The position numbers and the translations under genes were made by a program. Below, piece after piece: positions 10,807-22,435 of a stretch of 64,000 nt of DNA (the stretch's first letter is position 1; the number at the start of each line of letters is the position of its first letter). Under the pieces are notes generated by a model. That model ran no database searches and was not told the DNA's origin. It saw only the letters and a program-made list of their open reading frames with translations. Where the stretch lies: NCBI GenBank assembly GCA_022775985.1, contig JALFIM010000071.1, positions 45,006 through 109,005 of the forward strand. The letters run 5' to 3'. The stretch is from Prevotella sp. Its GTDB lineage: Bacteria > Bacteroidota > Bacteroidia > Bacteroidales > Bacteroidaceae.

Positions 10807-10972
10807 GTAATAAAATATATTTTGTTATTGCAAAATTACTGAAAAACTGTTGTCGTGCCAAATCTTTGACATACATTTTAAGAACCAGCCGAAGGAAATG
10901 GTCGTGCGTGTGTTCGGCTCCTGTAATGGCACGTTATCGGTACGCTTCTGTAACGTTTTGATTCACAACGTA

Positions 10973-11061
10973 TTGCAAAACGGCCCATTTCGCATCGTAA
11001 AACGGCCCGAATCACAGCGTGAAATGGACCGAATCGCAATACGAAATGGGCCGTTTTGCAA
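10973..11061. repeat. Palindromic 22-bp-unit repeat element, copy A
   Basis: Four imperfect 22-bp units bounded by a perfect 20-bp inverted repeat TTGCAAAACGGCCCATTTCG / CGAAATGGGCCGTTTTGCAA. Confidence 0.9.
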
Positions 11062-11174
11062 ATCGATTTGTATCAGTGCGTATAATTACAGGAATATGAT
11101 ATGTAAAGCACGAATAGTAAAGCACGAAAATAAATATTTCCAATGATTTATTCTTTTGTCTAAATAAGATTCTT

Positions 11175-11182
11175 TATCTTTG
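11175..11182 (+). promoter_or_regulatory. Bacteroidetes -7 promoter box (TAnnTTTG) for the island operon
   Basis: TATCTTTG upstream of upxY-like gene; nearest TTTG (11155-11158) is 16 nt away, shorter than the usual 19-21. Confidence 0.55.
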
Positions 11183-11290: not shown

Positions 11291-11971
11291 TTGTATAATG
11301 GGCAGCCTACCGACACAGACTTATCGTGTCCAAGTGCGAGACTTACCTCTTGTACGCCCTCCATCTCAAAGAACAGAGGTGGGGTGTCGGTAGAGAATGT
11401 GCCTACTGCAAACAGGCAATGGTTTGTTTTAAAAGTTTCGTATGGGCGTATCGTCAAGGCTAAAGCATTCGCAGAAGCTAAAGGACTTGAATGTTATGTT
11501 CCTATGCGATACAAAGAGATTAGGAAACAAGGCAAGAAACGAATCATCACAGAGCCTCTTCTTCCCTCATTTCTATTTGTTCATGCTGCAGCAGAACAAG
11601 TTGAAACATTACTCAATGAAATCAAAGTAAGTTCAGATGAGAGCAGAAACCTACTAAGTTATTACTTTAATCATACAGTCCATCTCCAAGACAACCCTGA
11701 ACGCAATCCTCCACTCATCATACGTGATGAAGCGATGGACAACTTCATCAGACTTACATCCATAAAGAATCCGCATATAATCCCTGTTACGACAGAAATT
11801 ATTCAGTATAAATTAGGAGATATGGTCATTGTGACAGATGGTGAATTTAAGAATATTCGTGGCAGAGTGGCAAGAATAGCAGGACAGCAGAGAGTGGTCG
11901 TGGAATTGTTTGAAGGATGCTTGGTGGCAACAGCCTATATACCAAAGAATGCCATGAAATTGCATGTTTGA
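11291..11971 (+). CDS. upxY: UpxY-family (NusG paralog) transcription antiterminator
   Basis: NGN domain WFVLKVSYGR...ECYVPM...EPLLPSFLFVH and KOW motif GDMVIVTDGEFKNIRGRVARIAGQQRVVVEL. Start codon uncertain (TTG 11291 or GTG 11399). Confidence 0.88.
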   Translation: MYNGQPTDTDLSCPSARLTSCTPSISKNRGGVSVENVPTANRQWFVLKVSYGRIVKAKAFAEAKGLECYVPMRYKEIRKQGKKRIITEPLLPSFLFVHAAAEQVETLLNEIKVSSDESRNLLSYYFNHTVHLQDNPERNPPLIIRDEAMDNFIRLTSIKNPHIIPVTTEIIQYKLGDMVIVTDGEFKNIRGRVARIAGQQRVVVELFEGCLVATAYIPKNAMKLHV

Positions 11972-11992: not shown

Positions 11993-13612
11993 ATGACTGG
12001 AAAAACGAAAAACATACTGAGCTTCAATCATAAGGAGGCTATGGATTTCTTCTTGAAATCAGAGCAATATCACGGATTTGAATTACCTGAATATTTCGTA
12101 TTCGATGACTTGCTTCAAAGAGTCAAGAATGCAGTTGACGATACGCCCTATGAGAAATGCTTAAATGAAGAAACTTCACCCGAACAATTATCAGATGTAA
12201 ACCTCAACATTCTGCTAAACAAGGATGGACGTTATGCTGTTCGCCCCATTATTCTTGCTAATCCGTTCCTTTATTATTTTCTTGTTAGGGAAATTTGCAA
12301 TGAGCAATCATGGACGGTTATAAAGCAACTATTTGAGAAGTTCAGCGTTCCACATATTACATCTTGCGCTCTGCCTGTCATACCTAAAGAGAAAGAGCCA
12401 TTTCATAAATCCACCACTATCCTCAATTGGTGGAGTTCCATGGAACAACGAAGCATCGAGTTGTCCTTGGAATATCGTTATATGTTCGTTACGGACATCA
12501 CCAACTGTTATGGTTCAGTAAATCCACAAGTTTTTGATTGGGCTTTCTCATTCAGAGGTACAAAGTACGAAACGGAACAAGTAAGCCCCATTGCCAAGAA
12601 TATCCAAAAGTATCTTCGTGCCTTCCAACAAGGGCGCAACATTGGCATTCCCCAGGGGAGTGCCATATTCGACTTTATAGGCGAAATTATTCTTGGCTAT
12701 TCTGACTTATTACTTCACGAAGCTATAAAGAGAGAGGGTATCAAAGCTCCTTACGAAATCATCCGTTACCGTGATGACTACCGCATATTCTGTAACGACA
12801 AAGATGAACTTGAAAAGATTTCATATATTCTTCAACACGTGCTGGAGAGTTTGAACTTCCGCATGAATAGCAAGAAGACCAAGATTAGTGACAGCATAGT
12901 TACCGATGCTGTCAAGCCCGACAAACTTGCCTATATCTACAACACACCTATATTTAACAAGAAAGGTTGCGACTTTGACAGTTTCGAGAAACACCTGCTT
13001 TACATTTTGCTGTTTGCTCGGCAATATCCCGACAGTGGTTCTATAAAAACTATGCTCTCGGACATAGACAAAAGAATCGAAGATTGGCTCAAGCCTTATG
13101 AAGAAGAGGTTACCACCATACCTATTCTTGAAGGAGGTGAACCAAAGGCTGAAAAAATAATGAAGCAACGCAGACTTATAGGAGGCAGCATCCGAGCCAT
13201 GTCAGCGGTCTGTGCACAAATAGCCTTAGAGAATGTTGGCTGTTGCCATTACGCCCTGCGAGTTCTTAGTCGAATGGTGGACTCCTTAAAAGGCAAAAAG
13301 GAAAAAAGCGCTATCATCAGTCTCGTTTATTCAAAGCTCTGCAACCAACCAAACTCCGACTACAACCAGCTCTGGCTACAGAACATGACGTATCAACGAG
13401 ACAAAAAAGGCACATCACCGTATAAAGTGCGGCTGTGCCGTGTGGTAGCAGGGGACAAGGATGTGGAATTGTGGAATAATGAGTGGGTGAAGCCTCAATT
13501 CTTGTCAGGCTTGCATATGAATGGAATTATCGATGAAAAGACCTTGAAGAAGGTTACACCAGTGATTACGTTTAGGGAAACGAGAATGTATAATGAGTTT
13601 ACAGTTTGCTGA
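11993..13612 (+). CDS. Reverse transcriptase, UG/Abi defence class with helical C-terminus (DRT4/UG15- or AbiP2-like)
   Basis: TDITNCYGS (D168), GIPQGSAIFDFIGEIILGY, RYRDDYRIF (YRDD at 12767-12778), NSKKT; about 230-aa helical C-terminal region; no maturase/HNH domain. Confidence 0.9.
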   Translation: MTGKTKNILSFNHKEAMDFFLKSEQYHGFELPEYFVFDDLLQRVKNAVDDTPYEKCLNEETSPEQLSDVNLNILLNKDGRYAVRPIILANPFLYYFLVREICNEQSWTVIKQLFEKFSVPHITSCALPVIPKEKEPFHKSTTILNWWSSMEQRSIELSLEYRYMFVTDITNCYGSVNPQVFDWAFSFRGTKYETEQVSPIAKNIQKYLRAFQQGRNIGIPQGSAIFDFIGEIILGYSDLLLHEAIKREGIKAPYEIIRYRDDYRIFCNDKDELEKISYILQHVLESLNFRMNSKKTKISDSIVTDAVKPDKLAYIYNTPIFNKKGCDFDSFEKHLLYILLFARQYPDSGSIKTMLSDIDKRIEDWLKPYEEEVTTIPILEGGEPKAEKIMKQRRLIGGSIRAMSAVCAQIALENVGCCHYALRVLSRMVDSLKGKKEKSAIISLVYSKLCNQPNSDYNQLWLQNMTYQRDKKGTSPYKVRLCRVVAGDKDVELWNNEWVKPQFLSGLHMNGIIDEKTLKKVTPVITFRETRMYNEFTVC

Positions 13613-15692
13613 TTATAATATGGACTATAAGAATAATTCAGAAATAATGAACAATATGGAACTTACAACTCAACAAAATAAAGTCTTTGAACAAATTAAG
13701 GCATTTCTTAATAGTGATGCATCTGTTTTTATCCTTCGAGGCTATGCAGGTACTGGTAAAACCACTATGGTAAAAGTTGTGGCTGACTATATAACTAAAA
13801 GCCGCCAGTTGACTATGATGGCTCCTACAGGACGAGCAGCGAGAGTACTTTCTGCTAAAACAGGATATGAAGCAACAACGATACACAAAGCTATTTATGA
13901 AAAAGCACATATTGTACCTAAAAAAGTCAAAGATATTGCAGAGTCAGAGTTCAAGTTCATGTTTCCTATTCATCAATCTGAAAATGGAGGTAATATAGTT
14001 GCAATAGTGGATGAGGCTTCTATGGTTTGCTCTCGAAAGATTGAACATGAGTTGTTTGTATTCGGAACCGATAATCTAATGGATGATCTTCTTACATATG
14101 TACGTCCGAATTTTGGTGGCAAGGTTATCTTTGTTGGTGATCCTGCGCAGTTGCCACCTGTAGGAGAAGCTGTTTCAAATGCATTACGGGCAGATTTTTT
14201 CCAAAAGAAAGGTTTGAAAGTTATAGAAACAGAACTTACCGAAGTGCTCCGTCAAAAAGGTGACAGTATTATCCTTAAGAATGCTATGATGATACGCGAT
14301 CTTCTCAACAAAGATAAGCGTAATCAACTTGTATTTGAAGAGCAAAAGGATGACGTAGAAACTGTTCCTTCTGAACAATTCCTTGACAAATACCTTAATT
14401 ACAGGAGGAAATCAGGGAAAAATGACAGTGTTGTCATCTGTTATTCTAACAAATCTGCAAACAGATACAACAGGGATATTCGTAAGGCTCTCTATGGTGA
14501 AGATGTGCCGATTAGAGAAAATGACATTCTGCTTATTACACAAAATAACTACATGCTAAATCGTATGAATGGAGAGTTTGTTCCTGTACTTTCTGTAGGA
14601 GCAAGAACACAACAGTCTGCTCCTGTATATATTCAGAGAGGAGGAATAAAACAGCGTGTTATCATTACATTGAACTTTGTGCAAGTAACAGTAACAGATG
14701 GTGATGGAAATCCAATGTTGTGCATGTTGATAGAAGATTTACTGACAAGTGATAAGGCTACAATTTCTATTGATGAGAATAGGGCTCTATATATCAATTT
14801 CTGCATGAGGCATCCAAAATTGAAACAGGGCACAGAGGATTTTGCAGAAGCCCTTCTATCTGATGAGTATTATAATGCAATACGTGCCAAATATGGCTAT
14901 GCTGTAACAGGGCATAAATGCCAAGGTGGTGAATGGGGAAAAGTATTTGTTGACTATACTAGTAGAACAGGACTAGATAACGACAGCTTAAGATGGGCAT
15001 ACACAGCTACAACACGAGCACAAAAAACACTTTATGTAGCAAACCTTCCACACATCACACCGTTTTCGAAATTCAGAATTGACCCTGTACAAAAGTGCAA
15101 AAACATAGATCTGGAATGCAGAATCCTTGACGAAGTTCCACTAACACCATTCCACGATAAAAATGTAGACAATGGCGTAAGGGCTAAGTTCCATTGTATT
15201 ACAAAAAACATGGAGTATACTCCTTACAAAATCTTAAGTGTACAAAGTCGTCCTTATTTGGAAATTTACAATGTACAAACACCTGATGGGGTTGATAGGT
15301 ATGACCTTCATTACAAGGCTGGGAGTATATTTTTGCCGGCAAAAGCTACATCTCCAAATCAGCATACACCGCTCATTAATATGATGCTGAATGACGAACG
15401 ATGTATATCTTACAAATTTAATTATGTTCCTTCTGACGAATCCCACAGCAAACTGTTTGATCTGATAAGATCTGCTTGTGATTCTATAAGCGTTCAAATT
15501 ACAAATGTTGTTGAACATCCAGAAGATTTTAGTACTTTATTTTACATGCGTACTAGTGAAACCTTCTCCTATATAAAGGTGTATGTAAATTCTGACGGAT
15601 TTATCACATATGCCAAACCTATGTCTCTGAAGGGTAAAGAAGATGGAGAACTTAGTGCAATAATAGAAATTATAAATTCACATTTCATATAA
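13593..15692 (+). CDS. RecD-like SF1B helicase with C-terminal duplicated beta-rich (putative TBP-like) domain
   Basis: Walker A GYAGTGKT, APTGRAA, IVDEASMV, VGDPAQLPPV, YAVTGHKCQGGEW, WAYTATTRA; about 160-aa tail with two similar repeats. True start may be 13620-13656. Confidence 0.9.
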   Translation: MSLQFADYNMDYKNNSEIMNNMELTTQQNKVFEQIKAFLNSDASVFILRGYAGTGKTTMVKVVADYITKSRQLTMMAPTGRAARVLSAKTGYEATTIHKAIYEKAHIVPKKVKDIAESEFKFMFPIHQSENGGNIVAIVDEASMVCSRKIEHELFVFGTDNLMDDLLTYVRPNFGGKVIFVGDPAQLPPVGEAVSNALRADFFQKKGLKVIETELTEVLRQKGDSIILKNAMMIRDLLNKDKRNQLVFEEQKDDVETVPSEQFLDKYLNYRRKSGKNDSVVICYSNKSANRYNRDIRKALYGEDVPIRENDILLITQNNYMLNRMNGEFVPVLSVGARTQQSAPVYIQRGGIKQRVIITLNFVQVTVTDGDGNPMLCMLIEDLLTSDKATISIDENRALYINFCMRHPKLKQGTEDFAEALLSDEYYNAIRAKYGYAVTGHKCQGGEWGKVFVDYTSRTGLDNDSLRWAYTATTRAQKTLYVANLPHITPFSKFRIDPVQKCKNIDLECRILDEVPLTPFHDKNVDNGVRAKFHCITKNMEYTPYKILSVQSRPYLEIYNVQTPDGVDRYDLHYKAGSIFLPAKATSPNQHTPLINMMLNDERCISYKFNYVPSDESHSKLFDLIRSACDSISVQITNVVEHPEDFSTLFYMRTSETFSYIKVYVNSDGFITYAKPMSLKGKEDGELSAIIEIINSHFI

Positions 15693-15693
15693 T

Positions 15694-17178
15694 ATGGCAA
15701 ATGTTAGAGATATAACGACAAAGTGCAAGGAAGGTCAAGTGCAGGAGGCATACGATATTGCTAAAGCTGATTTCGTGGCTATGCCAACCGATGTTTGGAA
15801 ACAAAGAGAGCTTGGTTGGGCACTATATTACATGATAAAAGCTGATTCCGAAAAAGGGGATTACACAAAGTTATTGGGACATATTGACGAACTGAAATCA
15901 TTGAGTCAACTGACATTAACTAATGACAATATGATTTTTGACAATGTCCAATTTCAAATAGCAAATTATATTAGGGTTCATATACCCTTTACTGATATAG
16001 AAGCATCAACAAAACTTTCAACATTTTTTCTGAAGCTAAAGGATTATAACTTCAAATCATCTGTTGGACATTCCTACCTTCTCCAATCCTTTCTCAAATT
16101 TGGGAATTGGCCTGAAATGCCTGACTTCTTTGACTGGTGGAATTTGGACAATCTAACTTCTGGAGACTATACACCATACGTCAATCAGAAAGGGCAAAAA
16201 ATGATGACCCTTGCGGAGCGTGCTTTCATAGCAAATTCCAAGGCATTGCTTAAGCTAAATGATCTTGGACGAATTGAGGAATTCCTTCCCAAGTTGGATA
16301 TTCTTATGAATAACCATAAGGAAATGATGTATCCAGGTTATTTCTACGGAAAACTTCTCCTGGCTTTAGGAAGTAATAGTGATGAAGCTTTAAAAGTTAT
16401 TATACCTTTTGTGAGAAAAAAAACTACTGAGTTTTGGGCCTGGCAGCTTTTAAGTGATGTTTTCACGGATGATGAGGAAAAGCAACTAGCTTGTCTGCTA
16501 CGTGCTGTTCATTGCAGAACAAAAGAAACTTTTCTTGGCAAAGTTCATATCAAATTAGCCAATTTGTATATAAAGCGTAGACAATTTAACTCTGCACGCT
16601 ATCATATCGATGCTGTAATACGATGTTATGTTTCACAAGGCTGGAGACTACCAACCGAAATAGATTGCTGGATACATCAACCTTGGCTTAATTCTACTAT
16701 ACCAGACGGAAATGCCCCTATTGATTATATGTCCATTACGAATGACATATTATGCAATGGCGCAGAAGAATGTATTGCAGTCGTTACATACGTTGATCAA
16801 ACCAATCATAAGGCTTTTATTATTTATGGCAAAGAGAAACGTACTGTTCAGAAGTTACGATTTAGAGTACAGGCGGGAAGTACATTGAAATTACATTATA
16901 TTACAGATAGTGAAGGCAGAATGAAAATTATTAGTTCAACAAGACTTCAGCTGCCTTCGAATCTAAATTATGCAAAATATGTAGAGGGAAAGATTGACAA
17001 AAGAGATGATAAAGAATTTGCATTCTTGAAGTCGGATTCTATAAGTTGCTTTGTTTCACCTAATATTGTGAAAAAATACGACTTAAAGAATGGGGATAAT
17101 ATCAGAAGTCTGATTATCTATGATTATGACAAGAAGAAGGATATGTGGAATTGGGTTTGTGTAAATGCAAAGAAGTAA
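15694..17178 (+). CDS. Helical-repeat (TPR-like) protein with C-terminal S1/CSD-like OB folds
   Basis: Helical repeats (QEAYDIAK..., WAWQLLSDVF, LKLANLYIKRRQFNSARY); C-terminal beta-rich modules IAVVTYVDQ and VEGKIDKRDDKEFAFLKSDSISCFVSPNIV. Confidence 0.65.
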   Translation: MANVRDITTKCKEGQVQEAYDIAKADFVAMPTDVWKQRELGWALYYMIKADSEKGDYTKLLGHIDELKSLSQLTLTNDNMIFDNVQFQIANYIRVHIPFTDIEASTKLSTFFLKLKDYNFKSSVGHSYLLQSFLKFGNWPEMPDFFDWWNLDNLTSGDYTPYVNQKGQKMMTLAERAFIANSKALLKLNDLGRIEEFLPKLDILMNNHKEMMYPGYFYGKLLLALGSNSDEALKVIIPFVRKKTTEFWAWQLLSDVFTDDEEKQLACLLRAVHCRTKETFLGKVHIKLANLYIKRRQFNSARYHIDAVIRCYVSQGWRLPTEIDCWIHQPWLNSTIPDGNAPIDYMSITNDILCNGAEECIAVVTYVDQTNHKAFIIYGKEKRTVQKLRFRVQAGSTLKLHYITDSEGRMKIISSTRLQLPSNLNYAKYVEGKIDKRDDKEFAFLKSDSISCFVSPNIVKKYDLKNGDNIRSLIIYDYDKKKDMWNWVCVNAKK

Positions 17179-17184
17179 AAAAAT

Positions 17185-17586
17185 ATGAAAGAGTTAACAC
17201 ATAATGCTAAGATAGCAGTATTAAAAATATTGAATGACATCGTTAATGCAGATAACATTGTAAAAGATGTAGAGGTAGATTATATGAATGAAATTGCACG
17301 TTATTTCGAACTTGCAGATAATTATATGGACGAGGTAAACAATATCGTTACTTCGCAAGCTTTGTCAATAGTAAGAACTCTCCCAACTGATTTAAAAGAG
17401 AAAATTACCAAGATGATGGGAAAGATGATTGTTATTGATAAAGATATTAATTATAACGAGGTAAAACTATATAATGCAGTCTGTGAGTCATGTAATATTG
17501 AACAAAATTTCAATATTGAAGATTATTCGTGGTGTACTTTTAGTGGAACATTAGTTAATCCTGAAGACTTTGCGAATATTATTTGA
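17185..17586 (+). CDS. TerB-like (tellurite-resistance B fold) protein
   Basis: IAVLKILNDIVNADNIVKDVEVDYM and KMIVIDKDINYNEVKLYNAV fit the duplicated AD(G)xxxxxE pattern of TerB. Confidence 0.7.
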   Translation: MKELTHNAKIAVLKILNDIVNADNIVKDVEVDYMNEIARYFELADNYMDEVNNIVTSQALSIVRTLPTDLKEKITKMMGKMIVIDKDINYNEVKLYNAVCESCNIEQNFNIEDYSWCTFSGTLVNPEDFANII

Positions 17587-17617
17587 TTAGTTACTTAACA
17601 CTTGAAACCAAGCATAT

Positions 17618-18449
17618 ATGAACATAGCAGACCAAATACGTCTAAAACTCCAACTGAAGGAGAATTCAGAAGTGGAATATAAGTCACTGCTGGCGGCTTT
17701 CCGAAAGTTGAATTTTGGCGTTCTTTCTCAGCCTTGGCCAATACCAACGGCGGCACGATTGTATTAGGAGTGAAAGAGAAGAACCATAAATTCACGCCAG
17801 ATGGTCTCTCTGAAGAACTTGTCGCAAAATACAGAAAGCAGTTTTGGGATGATGCACACAATAAGTCGTGTGTGAACATCCCGTTATTGGTTGAGAGGTG
17901 ATATCGAAGAAATAAAGACTGACGGAGGGCAATATCTACTTGCCTTTAGAATACCTCGTGCCCAATACGATTTGCGCCCAATACACCTTACACTAACTCC
18001 ATTTGGACATACCTATAAGCGTAGGGACGAGGGCGATTATCTGTGCAGTGACGATGAGGTGAAGCAGATGTATTCGGATGCCAATAATATGAGGGCATCC
18101 AACTATTGAGGAAAAGAATAATCCTGACAGAATTGAAACTTACCTGTCTTTGGTAAATCATACCAATATAGCTACGGAAACTTCTACTGTAACTACAGAA
18201 ACTTCAGCAAAAACTACGGAAACCACTACGGAAACTTTATCAGATACTGCGGAAACTCCAACAAAAACTACCGAAACTATTATTGATTCTATCCGAAATA
18301 ATCCGAAAATAACAACCAAAGAGATAGCTGCTGTATGTAGAATTACTGAAGATTGTGTTTCTTACCATATCAAGAAACTGAAACAAATGGGTAAAATAGT
18401 CCGTGTTGGTGGCTCTCGTAATAGAGGAGAATGGAAAGTCGTTGAATAG
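17618..18449 (+). pseudogene. Decayed AlbA_2/Schlafen-domain plus winged-HTH gene
   Basis: MNIADQ...ENSEVEYKS (frameshift) GGFPKVEFWRSFSALANTNGGTIVLGVKE... (frameshift near 17897) GDIEEIK...YKRRDEGDY, stop at 18109, then DRIETYLSL, a T/E-rich linker and HTH NPKITTKEIAAVC...GGSRNRGEWKVVE. The usual middle ATPase-like part is missing. Confidence 0.8.
18171..18279 (+). repeat. Short tandem repeat ACTACGGAAACT (TTET) in linker
   Basis: About six imperfect copies, mostly 21-nt period. Confidence 0.7.
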
Positions 18450-18484
18450 GTTTATATCAAAATTTAGCAACAACAACAAAGAAT

Positions 18485-18562
18485 ATGTTATTAGAAAACA
18501 AGACAAGGCCTCTTAGAGATGAACAATGAATATTGCAGCGCCAAGTGGCTGCATACTTAGGA
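18485..18562 (+). pseudogene. Truncated XRE-family HTH gene remnant
   Basis: Reads MLLENKTRPLRDEQ*ILQRQVAAYLG; premature TGA at 18527, and similarity to the recalled Bacteroidales XRE pattern (MLLGNKI..LRDEQG.LQRQ.AAYLEID) stops after YL. Confidence 0.6.
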
Positions 18563-19838: not shown

Positions 19839-20765
19839 ATGAAAAGGATAGGTTTTGTTTTGATGCTCCTCACGCTGACAACTCTTGCCAGCAGGGCTCA
19901 GAATGACGACATGTATTTTGTTCCTAAGAAGTCAAAGGACATGCCTGCCATGAAGAGGCATCCGGCCTATGACAGGCCAGTGTATTATGCGGGCAGCGAC
20001 AGGGACGTGGACGAGTACAACCGCCATGGCCGCTTCCGCAGCTCGTACCAACGTCTCGGCAATGACTCTATCGCAAATGACGTAATAGACTTCAGTGGAG
20101 GTAATGGCATTTATCCAGACAGTACTTATCTGGACAGCACTACTGTGTACTACTCCAAGGACGGTTATGACGGCGGCAGCTACTACGATGACGATGACTA
20201 CCGCTATTGCCGCCGCATGCACAGGTTTGACGGATGGTATGACCCGTTCTATGCCAGCAGCTATTACCTGTATGGCCCCGCCTACTGGCGTTCGGCCTGG
20301 TATGGCGGATGGTATGACCCATGGTATTATGACCCATGGATGTATTCCTATTATGGATGGGGCTATCCGTACTACTCATCATATTATTGGGGCGGCTGGG
20401 GCTATCCGCATTACTGGGGTGGCCCGGTTGTGGCATACCGCCGTGGGCATACGGGTACGCTCGGCTATTATGACAGGTCGCATTATGCAGGAGGCGTGAG
20501 ACGTGATAACAGTGGCTCACGGAGAGATTATGCCAGCGGCTACGCCCGTGGCAATTCCAACACCTCTTTCGGTACACGGCGCAGCACGACCTCCGCATAC
20601 GGCAACCAAAACTCTTTCGGCAATGTGAGATACTCTCAGCCATCGTCTCCGTCGTTCAGCCGTGGCTCTGCATCTGGAGGCTTCAGCGGCGGTGGCTCAT
20701 TCGGTGGAAGCCGTGGCGTTGGAGTAGGCACAGGTGGCGGTGGCGTGCGTATGGGCCGCAGATGA
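19839..20765 (+). CDS. Secreted low-complexity protein (Y/W/G-rich core, S/G/R-rich tail)
   Basis: Signal peptide, QNDDMYFVP, YYDPWMYSYYGWGYPYY..., GGFSGGGSFGG tail. Confidence 0.8.
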   Translation: MKRIGFVLMLLTLTTLASRAQNDDMYFVPKKSKDMPAMKRHPAYDRPVYYAGSDRDVDEYNRHGRFRSSYQRLGNDSIANDVIDFSGGNGIYPDSTYLDSTTVYYSKDGYDGGSYYDDDDYRYCRRMHRFDGWYDPFYASSYYLYGPAYWRSAWYGGWYDPWYYDPWMYSYYGWGYPYYSSYYWGGWGYPHYWGGPVVAYRRGHTGTLGYYDRSHYAGGVRRDNSGSRRDYASGYARGNSNTSFGTRRSTTSAYGNQNSFGNVRYSQPSSPSFSRGSASGGFSGGGSFGGSRGVGVGTGGGGVRMGRR

Positions 20766-20818
20766 TGGTGTGCTGCTTGTGCTTGATTGGTTAAACGACA
20801 ATTTATGAGAAAACAATT

Positions 20819-22435
20819 ATGAGAAAAAGATTTATATTTGCTTGTGTCGTCTCTATGTTTATGGTGCATGCCAATGCTCAGGAAACGTATGAGAACACGA
20901 AAATGGTGGATAATGACTTGAATGGAACGGCTCGGTATGTGGGCATGGGCGGTGCCATGGAGGCACTTGGTGCTGACATCTCCACGATAGCGTCAAACCC
21001 TGCTGGAATAGGACTGTTTCGCAGTTCGTCGGCAAGCCTCTCGTTTGGGCTCGTATCACAGGATGCCGCGCCCGACTTCAAGTACGGCAACAAGACAAAC
21101 ATGAGTTTTGACCAGGGTGGCTTCGTGTACTCTATGCGCAGCGGCAACAGGTCGTTCATGAATCTTGCGTTCAATTACAAGAAGAGCAAGAACTTTGATT
21201 ATATCCTGTCGGCGGCTGACGCTCTTAACGGGTCATCGCAGAACCGCCTGTCTTTCATAAAGGCCCTCGGCAACACTGATGGCAATGGCGTTACTCCTGT
21301 AAACATAGAAAAGGCTTCATGGGGGTATCGTGGAACCAACTATTATACATCTCAGCTTGACAACTTGTACTACAACTCGTTGATGATGAGTGGTGGAGGC
21401 TTCTATTACAGCAATGCCAGTGGCTATGTGTTCGGCCGCAGCGATACAGGCTATATCGGTGAGTACGACTTCAATATAAGTGGCAATATCAACGACCGCG
21501 TGTATCTTGGCATGACGGTGGGCATACATGACGTGCATTATCGCGGTCAGAGTCTCTATACTGAGCAGATACTCGACGGCAATGACAAGGCTAACGGTGA
21601 CCTCACGGTGTCTGACGAGCGCAGGATAACAGGTACGGGGTACAGTATATCGGCAGGAGCTATATTACGTCCCGTGGAGGCATCGCCGTTCCGTATAGGT
21701 GTGTATGTGTCGTCGCCTACATGGTATGACCTCACTACCACCAATTACACGATTATTGCCAACAACACTCCAAACAAGGGTGACTACCCGGGTTCGGCTG
21801 GTGCTACGTACGACTTCAAGGTGTACACTCCTTGGAAGTTTGGCTTGAGTCTTGGGCATACTATCGGCAATAATGTAGCTTTGGGTGCTACTTATGAGTA
21901 TGCCGACTATAGCTCGCTGGACTCACGTGTCAATGACGGCACCTATGAGGATGGTTGGGGTGATACGTACACCGACAGCCATAGTGATGATGCTATGAAC
22001 AGGCACACAAGGGAGACGTTGAAAGGCGTGTCTACATTGAAACTGGGTGCAGAGTATAAGCCGTATAAGGCATTTGCTATACGTCTGGGCTATAACTATG
22101 TGTCTCCGATGTTCAAGTCTAATGGATTCAAGGACGGTAGTGTTGACTCGTATGGATCAAACTACAGTTCGGCTACAGACTACACGAACTGGAAGGCCAC
22201 TAATCGTTTCACATTGGGATTCGGATATACGCTTGATAAGTTCTCGGTGGATTTCGCCTACCAATACTCTGTCACGGACGGAGATTTCCATCCTTTTATG
22301 GATGCCTATACTGATTACTATGTTAGGGATGATAACCAGAACTTGCAGAAGGTATCGCTTGACAACTATGCCGGGGCGGTAAAGGTCAGCAACAAGCGCA
22401 ACCAGTTGTTGCTTACTCTGGCTTACAAATTCTAA
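20819..22435 (+). CDS. Outer membrane beta-barrel, FadL/OmpP1-like
   Basis: Signal peptide, GTARYVGMGGAMEALGADISTIASNPAGIG, C-terminal aromatic LTLAYKF. Confidence 0.85.
   Translation: MRKRFIFACVVSMFMVHANAQETYENTKMVDNDLNGTARYVGMGGAMEALGADISTIASNPAGIGLFRSSSASLSFGLVSQDAAPDFKYGNKTNMSFDQGGFVYSMRSGNRSFMNLAFNYKKSKNFDYILSAADALNGSSQNRLSFIKALGNTDGNGVTPVNIEKASWGYRGTNYYTSQLDNLYYNSLMMSGGGFYYSNASGYVFGRSDTGYIGEYDFNISGNINDRVYLGMTVGIHDVHYRGQSLYTEQILDGNDKANGDLTVSDERRITGTGYSISAGAILRPVEASPFRIGVYVSSPTWYDLTTTNYTIIANNTPNKGDYPGSAGATYDFKVYTPWKFGLSLGHTIGNNVALGATYEYADYSSLDSRVNDGTYEDGWGDTYTDSHSDDAMNRHTRETLKGVSTLKLGAEYKPYKAFAIRLGYNYVSPMFKSNGFKDGSVDSYGSNYSSATDYTNWKATNRFTLGFGYTLDKFSVDFAYQYSVTDGDFHPFMDAYTDYYVRDDNQNLQKVSLDNYAGAVKVSNKRNQLLLTLAYKF

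Follow-up and report, generated by a model that had tools for sequence, protein, structure and literature searches.

The window analyzed here, a stretch of 64,000 nucleotides from Prevotella sp. contig JALFIM010000071.1, contains a gene with an ATG start codon (11993-13612, + strand) that encodes a reverse transcriptase (RT)-like DNA polymerase of 539 amino acids. We found that this protein, hereafter called the RT, belongs over its full length to the Abi-P2 family (UG/Abi class 1), and that it falls into a clade in which a tyrosine- and histidine-containing motif of the family has been replaced. The RT probably acts as a stand-alone, protein-primed and template-independent polymerase of single-stranded DNA (ssDNA) in abortive-infection-type defense, encoded by the first gene of an acquired operon that is led by an UpxY antiterminator and carries exchangeable cargo. 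The Abi-P2 family itself is already known; what is new here is a defined clade with an altered motif.

Family, fold and active site

The AbiP2 hidden Markov model (HMM) in PADLOC matched the full length of the RT with a score of 547 bits (E=1.1e-164), which is far above chance, and aligned residues 4-535 to positions 3-485 of the 489 positions in the profile. The other RT models in PADLOC trailed with scores of 127 bits for UG14, 100 for Drt6, 94.5 for Drt4 and 54 for AbiK. Retron and DRT2 profiles scored 27-30 bits. Pfam assigned only the generic RVT_1 domain. Standard defense-finder profiles would recognize the gene as AbiP2. Among solved structures, the crystal structure of Abi-P2 (PDB 7R08) was the only strong sequence match, with an E-value of 2.8e-57 that dropped to 2.2e-133 with a profile of 53 sequences. 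The RT shares 27-28% identity, over 98% of the length, with the founding Abi-P2 genes, which come from the prophages P2-EC30 and P2-EC58.

The AlphaFold2 model of the RT, computed from the alignment of these 53 sequences (predicted local distance difference test score, pLDDT, 88; predicted template modeling score, pTM, 0.88), has the bilobal Abi-P2 fold, with fingers and palm in one lobe and a C-terminal helical domain that replaces the thumb, and it contains the long helical C-terminus that a first-pass annotation of this DNA had described. In a Foldseek search with the model, the top six matches were the six chains of 7R08, with template modeling (TM) scores of 0.76-0.78 (TMq) and 0.85-0.86 (TMt), the best of which covered the full length (TMq 0.78, TMt 0.86, E=1.8e-28). 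The next matches were to DRT4, UG15, DRT6, AbiK and AbiA at TM scores of 0.37-0.53, and the RTs of group II introns, retrons and diversity-generating retroelements matched through the palm alone. The catalytic aspartate in motif A (D168) and the YxDD of motif C (YRDD, residues 259-262), both of which characterize Abi-P2, are present in the RT. From the HMM scores, the structure matches and the fold scores it therefore follows that the RT is an Abi-P2 protein, and neither a DRT4 protein nor a retron or intron RT. The first-pass annotation had also considered the gene to be of the UG/Abi class, on which PADLOC, the sequence match to 7R08 and Foldseek agree. It had assigned the RT to a DRT4/UG15-AbiP2 group, and here the Abi-P2 part stands, whereas the DRT4 part does not: the Drt4 equivalog model of NCBIfam (NF041749) scored 71.9 bits, far below its cut-off of 450, the Drt4 model in PADLOC scored 94 bits against 547 for AbiP2, and the TM score to DRT4 was about 0.5. 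Clustering with the RTs of retrons or group II introns, which was named in the annotation as an outcome that would speak against it, was not seen beyond the weak matches to the palm domain.

All motifs listed in the first-pass annotation were located by a script in the open reading frame: D168 and Y259-R-D261-D262, NKDGRYAVRP at residues 76-85 with AVRP at 82-85, WWSSMEQRS at 146-154, SVNPQV at 175-180, GIPQGS at 218-223 and KPDKL at 308-312. In an alternative public gene call, the RT starts at Met17 and is 523 amino acids long. We consider 11993 the better start, since the first 16 residues are conserved across the clade, where the N-terminus reads M..K.KNILSL..EA..FFLK, and since they align with Abi-P2 of E. 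coli, the alignment beginning at residue 6.

Abi-P2 forms a trimer, potentially a hexamer, and synthesizes DNA without a template, and this synthesis is abolished by the mutation Y61F but not by Y46F (Figiel et al., PMC9508834). In the HMMER alignment, for which the chain numbering of 7R08 is that of ORF570, residue 61 of Abi-P2 (in ELPAYINF) pairs with Tyr34 of the RT (in ELPEYFVF), and residue 46 with Phe19. The N-terminal tyrosines of the RT are located at positions 26, 34, 53 and 81. The priming candidates proposed in the first-pass annotation were thus correctly numbered for Tyr26, Tyr34 and Tyr81, while the proposed Tyr54 is really Tyr53. Judging from the alignment with Tyr61 of Abi-P2, Tyr34 (codon at 12092-12094, + strand) is most likely the priming residue, to which the 5' end of the DNA would be covalently attached. 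The P-x-Y formed by P32 and Y34 is invariant in 53 relatives that span identities of 32-92%, as are D168, Y173 and the sequence RYRDDYRIF, and GIPQGS is at least nearly so. D168, Y173, which is at the aromatic position of the sugar gate, and SVNPQV are all encoded in the motif A region (12494-12532, + strand), and the YRDD motif is encoded at 12767-12778 (+ strand). The ratio of nonsynonymous to synonymous substitution rates (dN/dS) was 0.05-0.08 in pairwise comparisons with five relatives. By these measures, the enzyme is intact and maintained under purifying selection.

We found no candidate for an associated non-coding RNA (ncRNA). Retrons, DRT2, DRT3 and DRT9 depend on a conserved, structured ncRNA that adjoins the RT gene, and nothing of this kind was seen here. 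The gap between the TGA stop codon of the upstream upxY gene (11969-11971) and the ATG of the RT gene is 21 nt, which agrees with the earlier claim that there is no room for an ncRNA immediately upstream. A scan of the 9.4 kb at 10.5-19.9 kb by E-value revealed no Rfam family at E<=1, except for spurious matches of microRNA models to a palindrome at 10971-11063. An all-against-all blastn comparison of the 400-nt regions that precede the RT genes in the clade showed similarity only where the upstream gene was shared, and no conserved non-coding sequence. An ncRNA upstream of the RT gene or near it is ruled out by these results, and the absence of a candidate fits the template-independent mechanism of Abi-P2. 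The palindromic element itself, located about 900 nt upstream of the RT gene at the left edge of the acquired island, is 89-93 nt long, has perfect terminal inverted repeats of 20 bp (TTGCAAAACGGCCCATTTCG...CGAAATGGGCCGTTTTGCAA) and gave the microRNA matches on both strands.

The RT resembles Abi-P2 from the P2-like prophages of E. coli (P2-EC30 ORF570; PDB 7R08) in its sequence (27.6% identity over 98% of the protein), its two-lobed fold (TM 0.78/0.86), its catalytic motifs and the equivalent priming tyrosine (Tyr61 versus Tyr34), and also in that it is a single polypeptide without an ncRNA that is encoded in a variable defense region of mobile DNA. It differs from Abi-P2 in that SIYTHS, AWRP and TNGIPQGS are replaced by SVNPQV, AVRP and NIGIPQGS, in an insert of about 25 residues in the helical domain, the length of which varies across the clade, in its host, which is a gut Bacteroidales bacterium rather than an enterobacterial prophage, and in its placement behind an UpxY antiterminator and ahead of other defense genes. 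The second-best structural match, DRT4/UG15, likewise belongs to class 1 of the UG/Abi RTs and has a helical domain, but the TM scores are 0.44-0.51, the sequence identity is 14-15%, and the HMM score of the RT is far below the family threshold. DRT4 is reported to act as a hexamer that synthesizes ssDNA from a protein primer and without a template. AbiK and AbiA from Lactococcus belong to the same mechanism class, with protein-primed and untemplated DNA synthesis, and have the same architecture of an RT and a helical domain, but both are remote from the RT (TM 0.37-0.50; AbiK 54 bits in PADLOC), and AbiA, unlike the RT, contains a HEPN domain and is dimeric.

A clade with an altered motif

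A scan for relatives in one genome per species returned 80 loci. The sequence that follows motif A, S-I-Y-T-H-S, is conserved throughout the family, although it is not a formal criterion for Abi-P2. It reads SVNPQV in the RT, where the AlphaFold2 model places it in the loop and the start of the helix right after the motif A strand. The Y-T-H residues are absent from 42 of 42 members of the clade to which the RT belongs and present in 41 of 41 other Abi-P2 sequences in the motif table. Where all other Abi-P2 proteins read SIYTH[ST], the clade reads S[VI]NP[QE], with other non-YTH variants in a few divergent members. Most members also contain AVRP instead of A[WY]RP, and NIG instead of TNG before IPQGS. 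They are from about 40% to 92% identical to the RT. In the maximum-likelihood tree, all 42 non-YTH sequences are located on one side of a single branch with a length of 1.08 substitutions per site and a support of 100 in the Shimodaira-Hasegawa-like approximate likelihood ratio test (SH-aLRT), and therefore the tree implies one motif change. The sister sequences of the clade are YTH-type Abi-P2 proteins from gut Bacteroidota. Profile alignments with RTs of solved structure revealed that the Y-x-H motif extends beyond the family: the site reads SIYTHS in Abi-P2 of E. coli and in DRT3b, SIYTHT in DRT6, HIYTHS in the RT of PDB 26cz and NIYSHS in UG15/DRT4. No statement about the role of the Y-x-H residues was found in the Abi-P2/AbiK paper, in the active-site section of the DRT4 preprint or by a full-text search.

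The clade is also characterized by an insert in the helical domain, approximately at residues 365-392 (13085-13168, + strand), which is modeled as a beta hairpin with strands at 369-375 and 385-391. In the alignment window that corresponds to residues 355-402, members of the clade have about 45-90 residues, except for 24 in locus L050, versus about 20 in the YTH-type proteins, and the length of the insert varies within the clade. The monophyly of the non-YTH sequences and the variable insert therefore support a distinct Abi-P2 subfamily, as judged from the sequences. The first-pass annotation had suggested such a subfamily from the changes of SIYTHS to S[VI]NPQ and of AWRP to AVRP, which do indeed mark this one monophyletic clade.

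The AbiP2 profile matched 4 of 401 genomes of the order, which shows that the family is rare there, and within the order, YTH-type proteins matched the profile best, at 633-686 bits. The clade is common in metagenomes from gut and rumen, with one protein that is 91% identical to the RT indexed in 146 collection blocks, and there are hundreds of near-identical, intact copies of the RT in gut metagenomes. The clade members in L013, L020, L021, L027 and L040 are located on contigs binned as Oscillospiraceae, Bifidobacteriaceae, Pseudobutyrivibrio or Wujia; these bin labels, which belong to Firmicutes or Actinobacteria, probably represent either mis-binned Bacteroidales contigs or transfer across phyla.

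The YTH-type proteins of Bacteroidota and other phyla (for example L009, L010 and L066) are of the same family and similar in length, and they are 32-43% identical to the RT. They differ from it in that they retain SIYTHS, lack the insert and have no adjacent UpxY, and several of them are located between hsdS and hsdR in operons for type I restriction-modification. Such an arrangement, with the YTH-type gene after homologs of hsdM and hsdS and a homolog of hsdR downstream, was observed in L066, L067, L069, L081, L086 and L087, in genomes of Verrucomicrobiota, Pseudomonadota and Thermodesulfobacteriota. The HsdM, HsdS and HsdR assignments were confirmed with Pfam in L066.

Operon context and proposed mechanism

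The gene immediately upstream of the RT gene (11396-11971, + strand; probable GTG start at 11396) encodes a NusG paralog of 191 amino acids that belongs to the UpxY family of transcription antiterminators, with Pfam NusG and KOW domains and a score of 113 bits for the NCBIfam model antiterm_UpxY (NF033644), for which the cut-off is 100. A pattern scan identified a Bacteroides-type -7 box (TATCTTTG; 11175-11182, + strand), which is a candidate operon promoter by its match to the consensus only, and which precedes a leader of about 215 nt. No other -7 box was found in the stretches scanned, that is, upstream of the RT gene, at the RT/TOTE junction and at the end of the TerB-like gene, and scans for sigma-70 promoters and terminators identified no more sites than in shuffled sequence.

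Copies of upxY that encode proteins 67-80% identical to this one are located directly upstream of the RT gene in L001-L007, L012-L014 and L016, where the RTs are 84-92% identical to the RT in the window. In blastn comparisons, the DNA homology among the UpxY-RT loci extends from about 11128-11175 to about 13580-13590, within the last codons of the RT gene, and begins again at 17596. UpxY adjoins neither the RTs of 82% identity or less nor those in L015 (84-85%) and L017, and the pairing of UpxY and RT is therefore recent and narrow. A deep linkage between the two is ruled out by this distribution, which is confined to RTs of at least 84% identity and is incomplete even there. A search of the literature for UpxY together with defense RTs returned one unrelated paper only. 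UpxY diverges faster than the adjoining RT, with 67-80% versus 84-92% amino acid identity and dN/dS values of 0.09-0.18 versus 0.05-0.08, and the UpxY proteins might coevolve with their own leader sequences. The GC content is 29-41% from upxY through the TerB-like gene, versus 52-54% in the flanking genes kdsA and prmA, which suggests that this low-GC region is foreign DNA acquired by horizontal transfer.

The two genes downstream of the RT gene encode a TOTE/PDC-M16 system, where TOTE stands for TPR, OB, TBP, Effector (PMC12458937). One gene encodes a superfamily 1 helicase with a C-terminal TBP-like domain (13593-15692, + strand; PADLOC PDC-M16A, 671 bits; Pfam AAA_30, UvrD_C_2 and TBP-TOTE), and the other a protein with DUF7017 and an OB domain of the S1/CSD type (15694-17178, + strand; PADLOC PDC-M16B, 475 bits; Pfam DUF7017 and S1CSD-TOTE-2), such that both of the proteins that define the system, a helicase with a TBP-like tail and a helical-repeat protein that bears an S1/CSD OB domain, are present. 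The helicase may start at the ATG at 13593, which would overlap the RT gene by 20 nt, or at Met19 or Met22 (13647 or 13656); the overlap is uncertain, because the matches to the HMM and to homologs begin at residue 22 of the helicase. The last gene of the set encodes a small protein of 133 amino acids (17185-17586, + strand) that is weakly similar to TerB (22 bits in Pfam, below the cut-off of 24.4), and a TerB-like gene is likewise included in the cargo of L001.

The cargo behind the RTs that are 84-92% identical to the RT consists of other genes: DUF1848 with a NERD/UvrD helicase and TerB, DUF1848 with a DpdF-like helicase of 1749 amino acids, a TmtA-like protein of 2325 amino acids with a helicase-PIN protein, or an S1-domain protein with an AAA_11/12 helicase. 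There is no cargo at all between the RT gene and the right-flank gene in L012. In deeper members of the clade, the neighboring genes are unrelated or located on the opposite strand. From these comparisons of gene order, the TOTE/PDC-M16 pair and the TerB-like gene would represent separate and exchangeable cargo rather than obligatory partners of the RT. The DUF1848 gene is located directly 3' of the RT gene in L001-L006 (9732-10796) and matches the PADLOC model for RT-associated DUF1848 with an E-value of 8.8e-36. This model has been tied to UG25 methylase-RT fusions (PMC9226505).

Abi-P2 has been described as a stand-alone system, and the protein from E. coli defends alone (PMC9226505, PMC11077055). 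By homology with this protein, we infer that the RT is a catalytically competent polymerase, in which a helical domain joined to the palm and fingers substitutes for the thumb, and that it would assemble into trimers or hexamers and extend covalently bound ssDNA from Tyr34 with neither a template nor a primer. It would need no ncRNA and could serve as a self-sufficient antiphage gene of the abortive-infection type. As the first structural gene of a defense operon, it would be transcribed with the cargo, probably from one promoter, with transcription sustained by the UpxY antiterminator that is encoded upstream. Template independence and protein priming are thus predicted from homology, and oligomerization, a defense phenotype and co-transcription of the operon are likewise presumed. 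The stand-alone reading is favored by the unrelated cargo behind near-identical RTs and by the RT in L012 that has none.

Two sets of observations weigh against this reading. One is that the genes of the operon may be functionally coupled: the RT would be the invariant part and would provide ssDNA linked to protein, or detect infection, on behalf of interchangeable helicase, OB and TBP modules, here TOTE/PDC-M16 and TerB, and the parts would only work together. The RT and cargo genes share one strand, are tightly spaced and have a single -7 box, a TOTE helicase adjoins an RT both here and in L019, the two helicases being only 39% identical, and most of the cargo sets examined behind the closest RTs contain a helicase gene, several of them also OB/S1 or TerB proteins. 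The match of DUF1848 to an RT-associated model is of the same kind, and these recurrences leave room for functional coupling. Furthermore, the ssDNA made by DRT4 is reported to be a signaling intermediate (bioRxiv 10.64898/2026.10.27.754916). However, the families of cargo behind near-identical RTs are mutually unrelated, L012 has no cargo, deeper members of the clade have other neighbors, and the PDC-M16 entry in PADLOC consists of the A and B genes only, both of which are matched here, and we consider an obligate coupling unlikely. In a related scenario of similarly low probability, UpxY and RT would form the conserved head of a modular immune locus in Bacteroidales, in which UpxY drives read-through into the inserted cassette and the ssDNA bound to the RT is a signal or bait that is read by interchangeable helicase, OB and TBP effectors, such as TOTE here. 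If so, the motif-altered clade would represent a sensor for multi-gene systems and not a stand-alone Abi protein.

The other set concerns the chemistry. The activity of the clade could differ from that of Abi-P2, because its members carry other residues in place of the Y-x-H motif, which all other UG/Abi RTs of solved structure examined here share. The RT might then be templated by an RNA encoded elsewhere, use different nucleotides or serve as a scaffold that does not polymerize, and the complete replacement of the motif on a long stem branch and the additional stretch of variable length in the helical domain are consistent with such a change. Even so, the overall fold is that of Abi-P2, strong purifying selection has kept the priming tyrosine, Tyr173 at the gate and all catalytic residues, and no candidate for an ncRNA was found, so that altered chemistry has in our view only a slight probability. 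It is very unlikely that the RT gene is a decaying passenger without a current function. Although the island consists of foreign, low-GC DNA and its right-flank gene is a pseudogene, the RT frame is intact, its dN/dS values are low and near-identical, intact copies abound in gut metagenomes. A stand-alone Abi-P2 polymerase is thus the interpretation that we favor.

Abi-P2 is among the few RT-like enzymes that have been shown to make DNA with neither a template nor a primer. The clade described here, which is abundant in Bacteroidales from human and animal guts, has kept the catalytic and priming residues and swapped the Tyr/His motif, and it thereby provides a natural mutant series for the function of this motif. 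The placement of UpxY ahead of swappable cargo suggests a way in which foreign defense operons that are long and rich in AT may be expressed in Bacteroidales. Neither the motif swap nor the placement of UpxY overturns the current understanding.

Flanking sequences

The right flank of the island is a broken gene with AlbA_2, HATPase_c_4 and HTH_24 domains (17596-18560, + strand), which is split into three frames and lacks about 710 bp compared to its homolog in L001. The gene is intact in L001 (505 amino acids) and borders the variable cargo in the related loci. In blastn comparisons, positions 17596-18099 are 87-89% identical to L001-L006, and positions 18095-18560 are 68-73% identical to L001, L002 and L006. 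The closest complete genome, which is from the same genus (G356), was too divergent for the island to be delimited against an empty site, with no more than 67% identity in kdsA and no synteny. Just past prmA, at 19839-22435, there are two open reading frames of 308 and 538 amino acids, neither of which matches a Pfam family at E<=1e-4.

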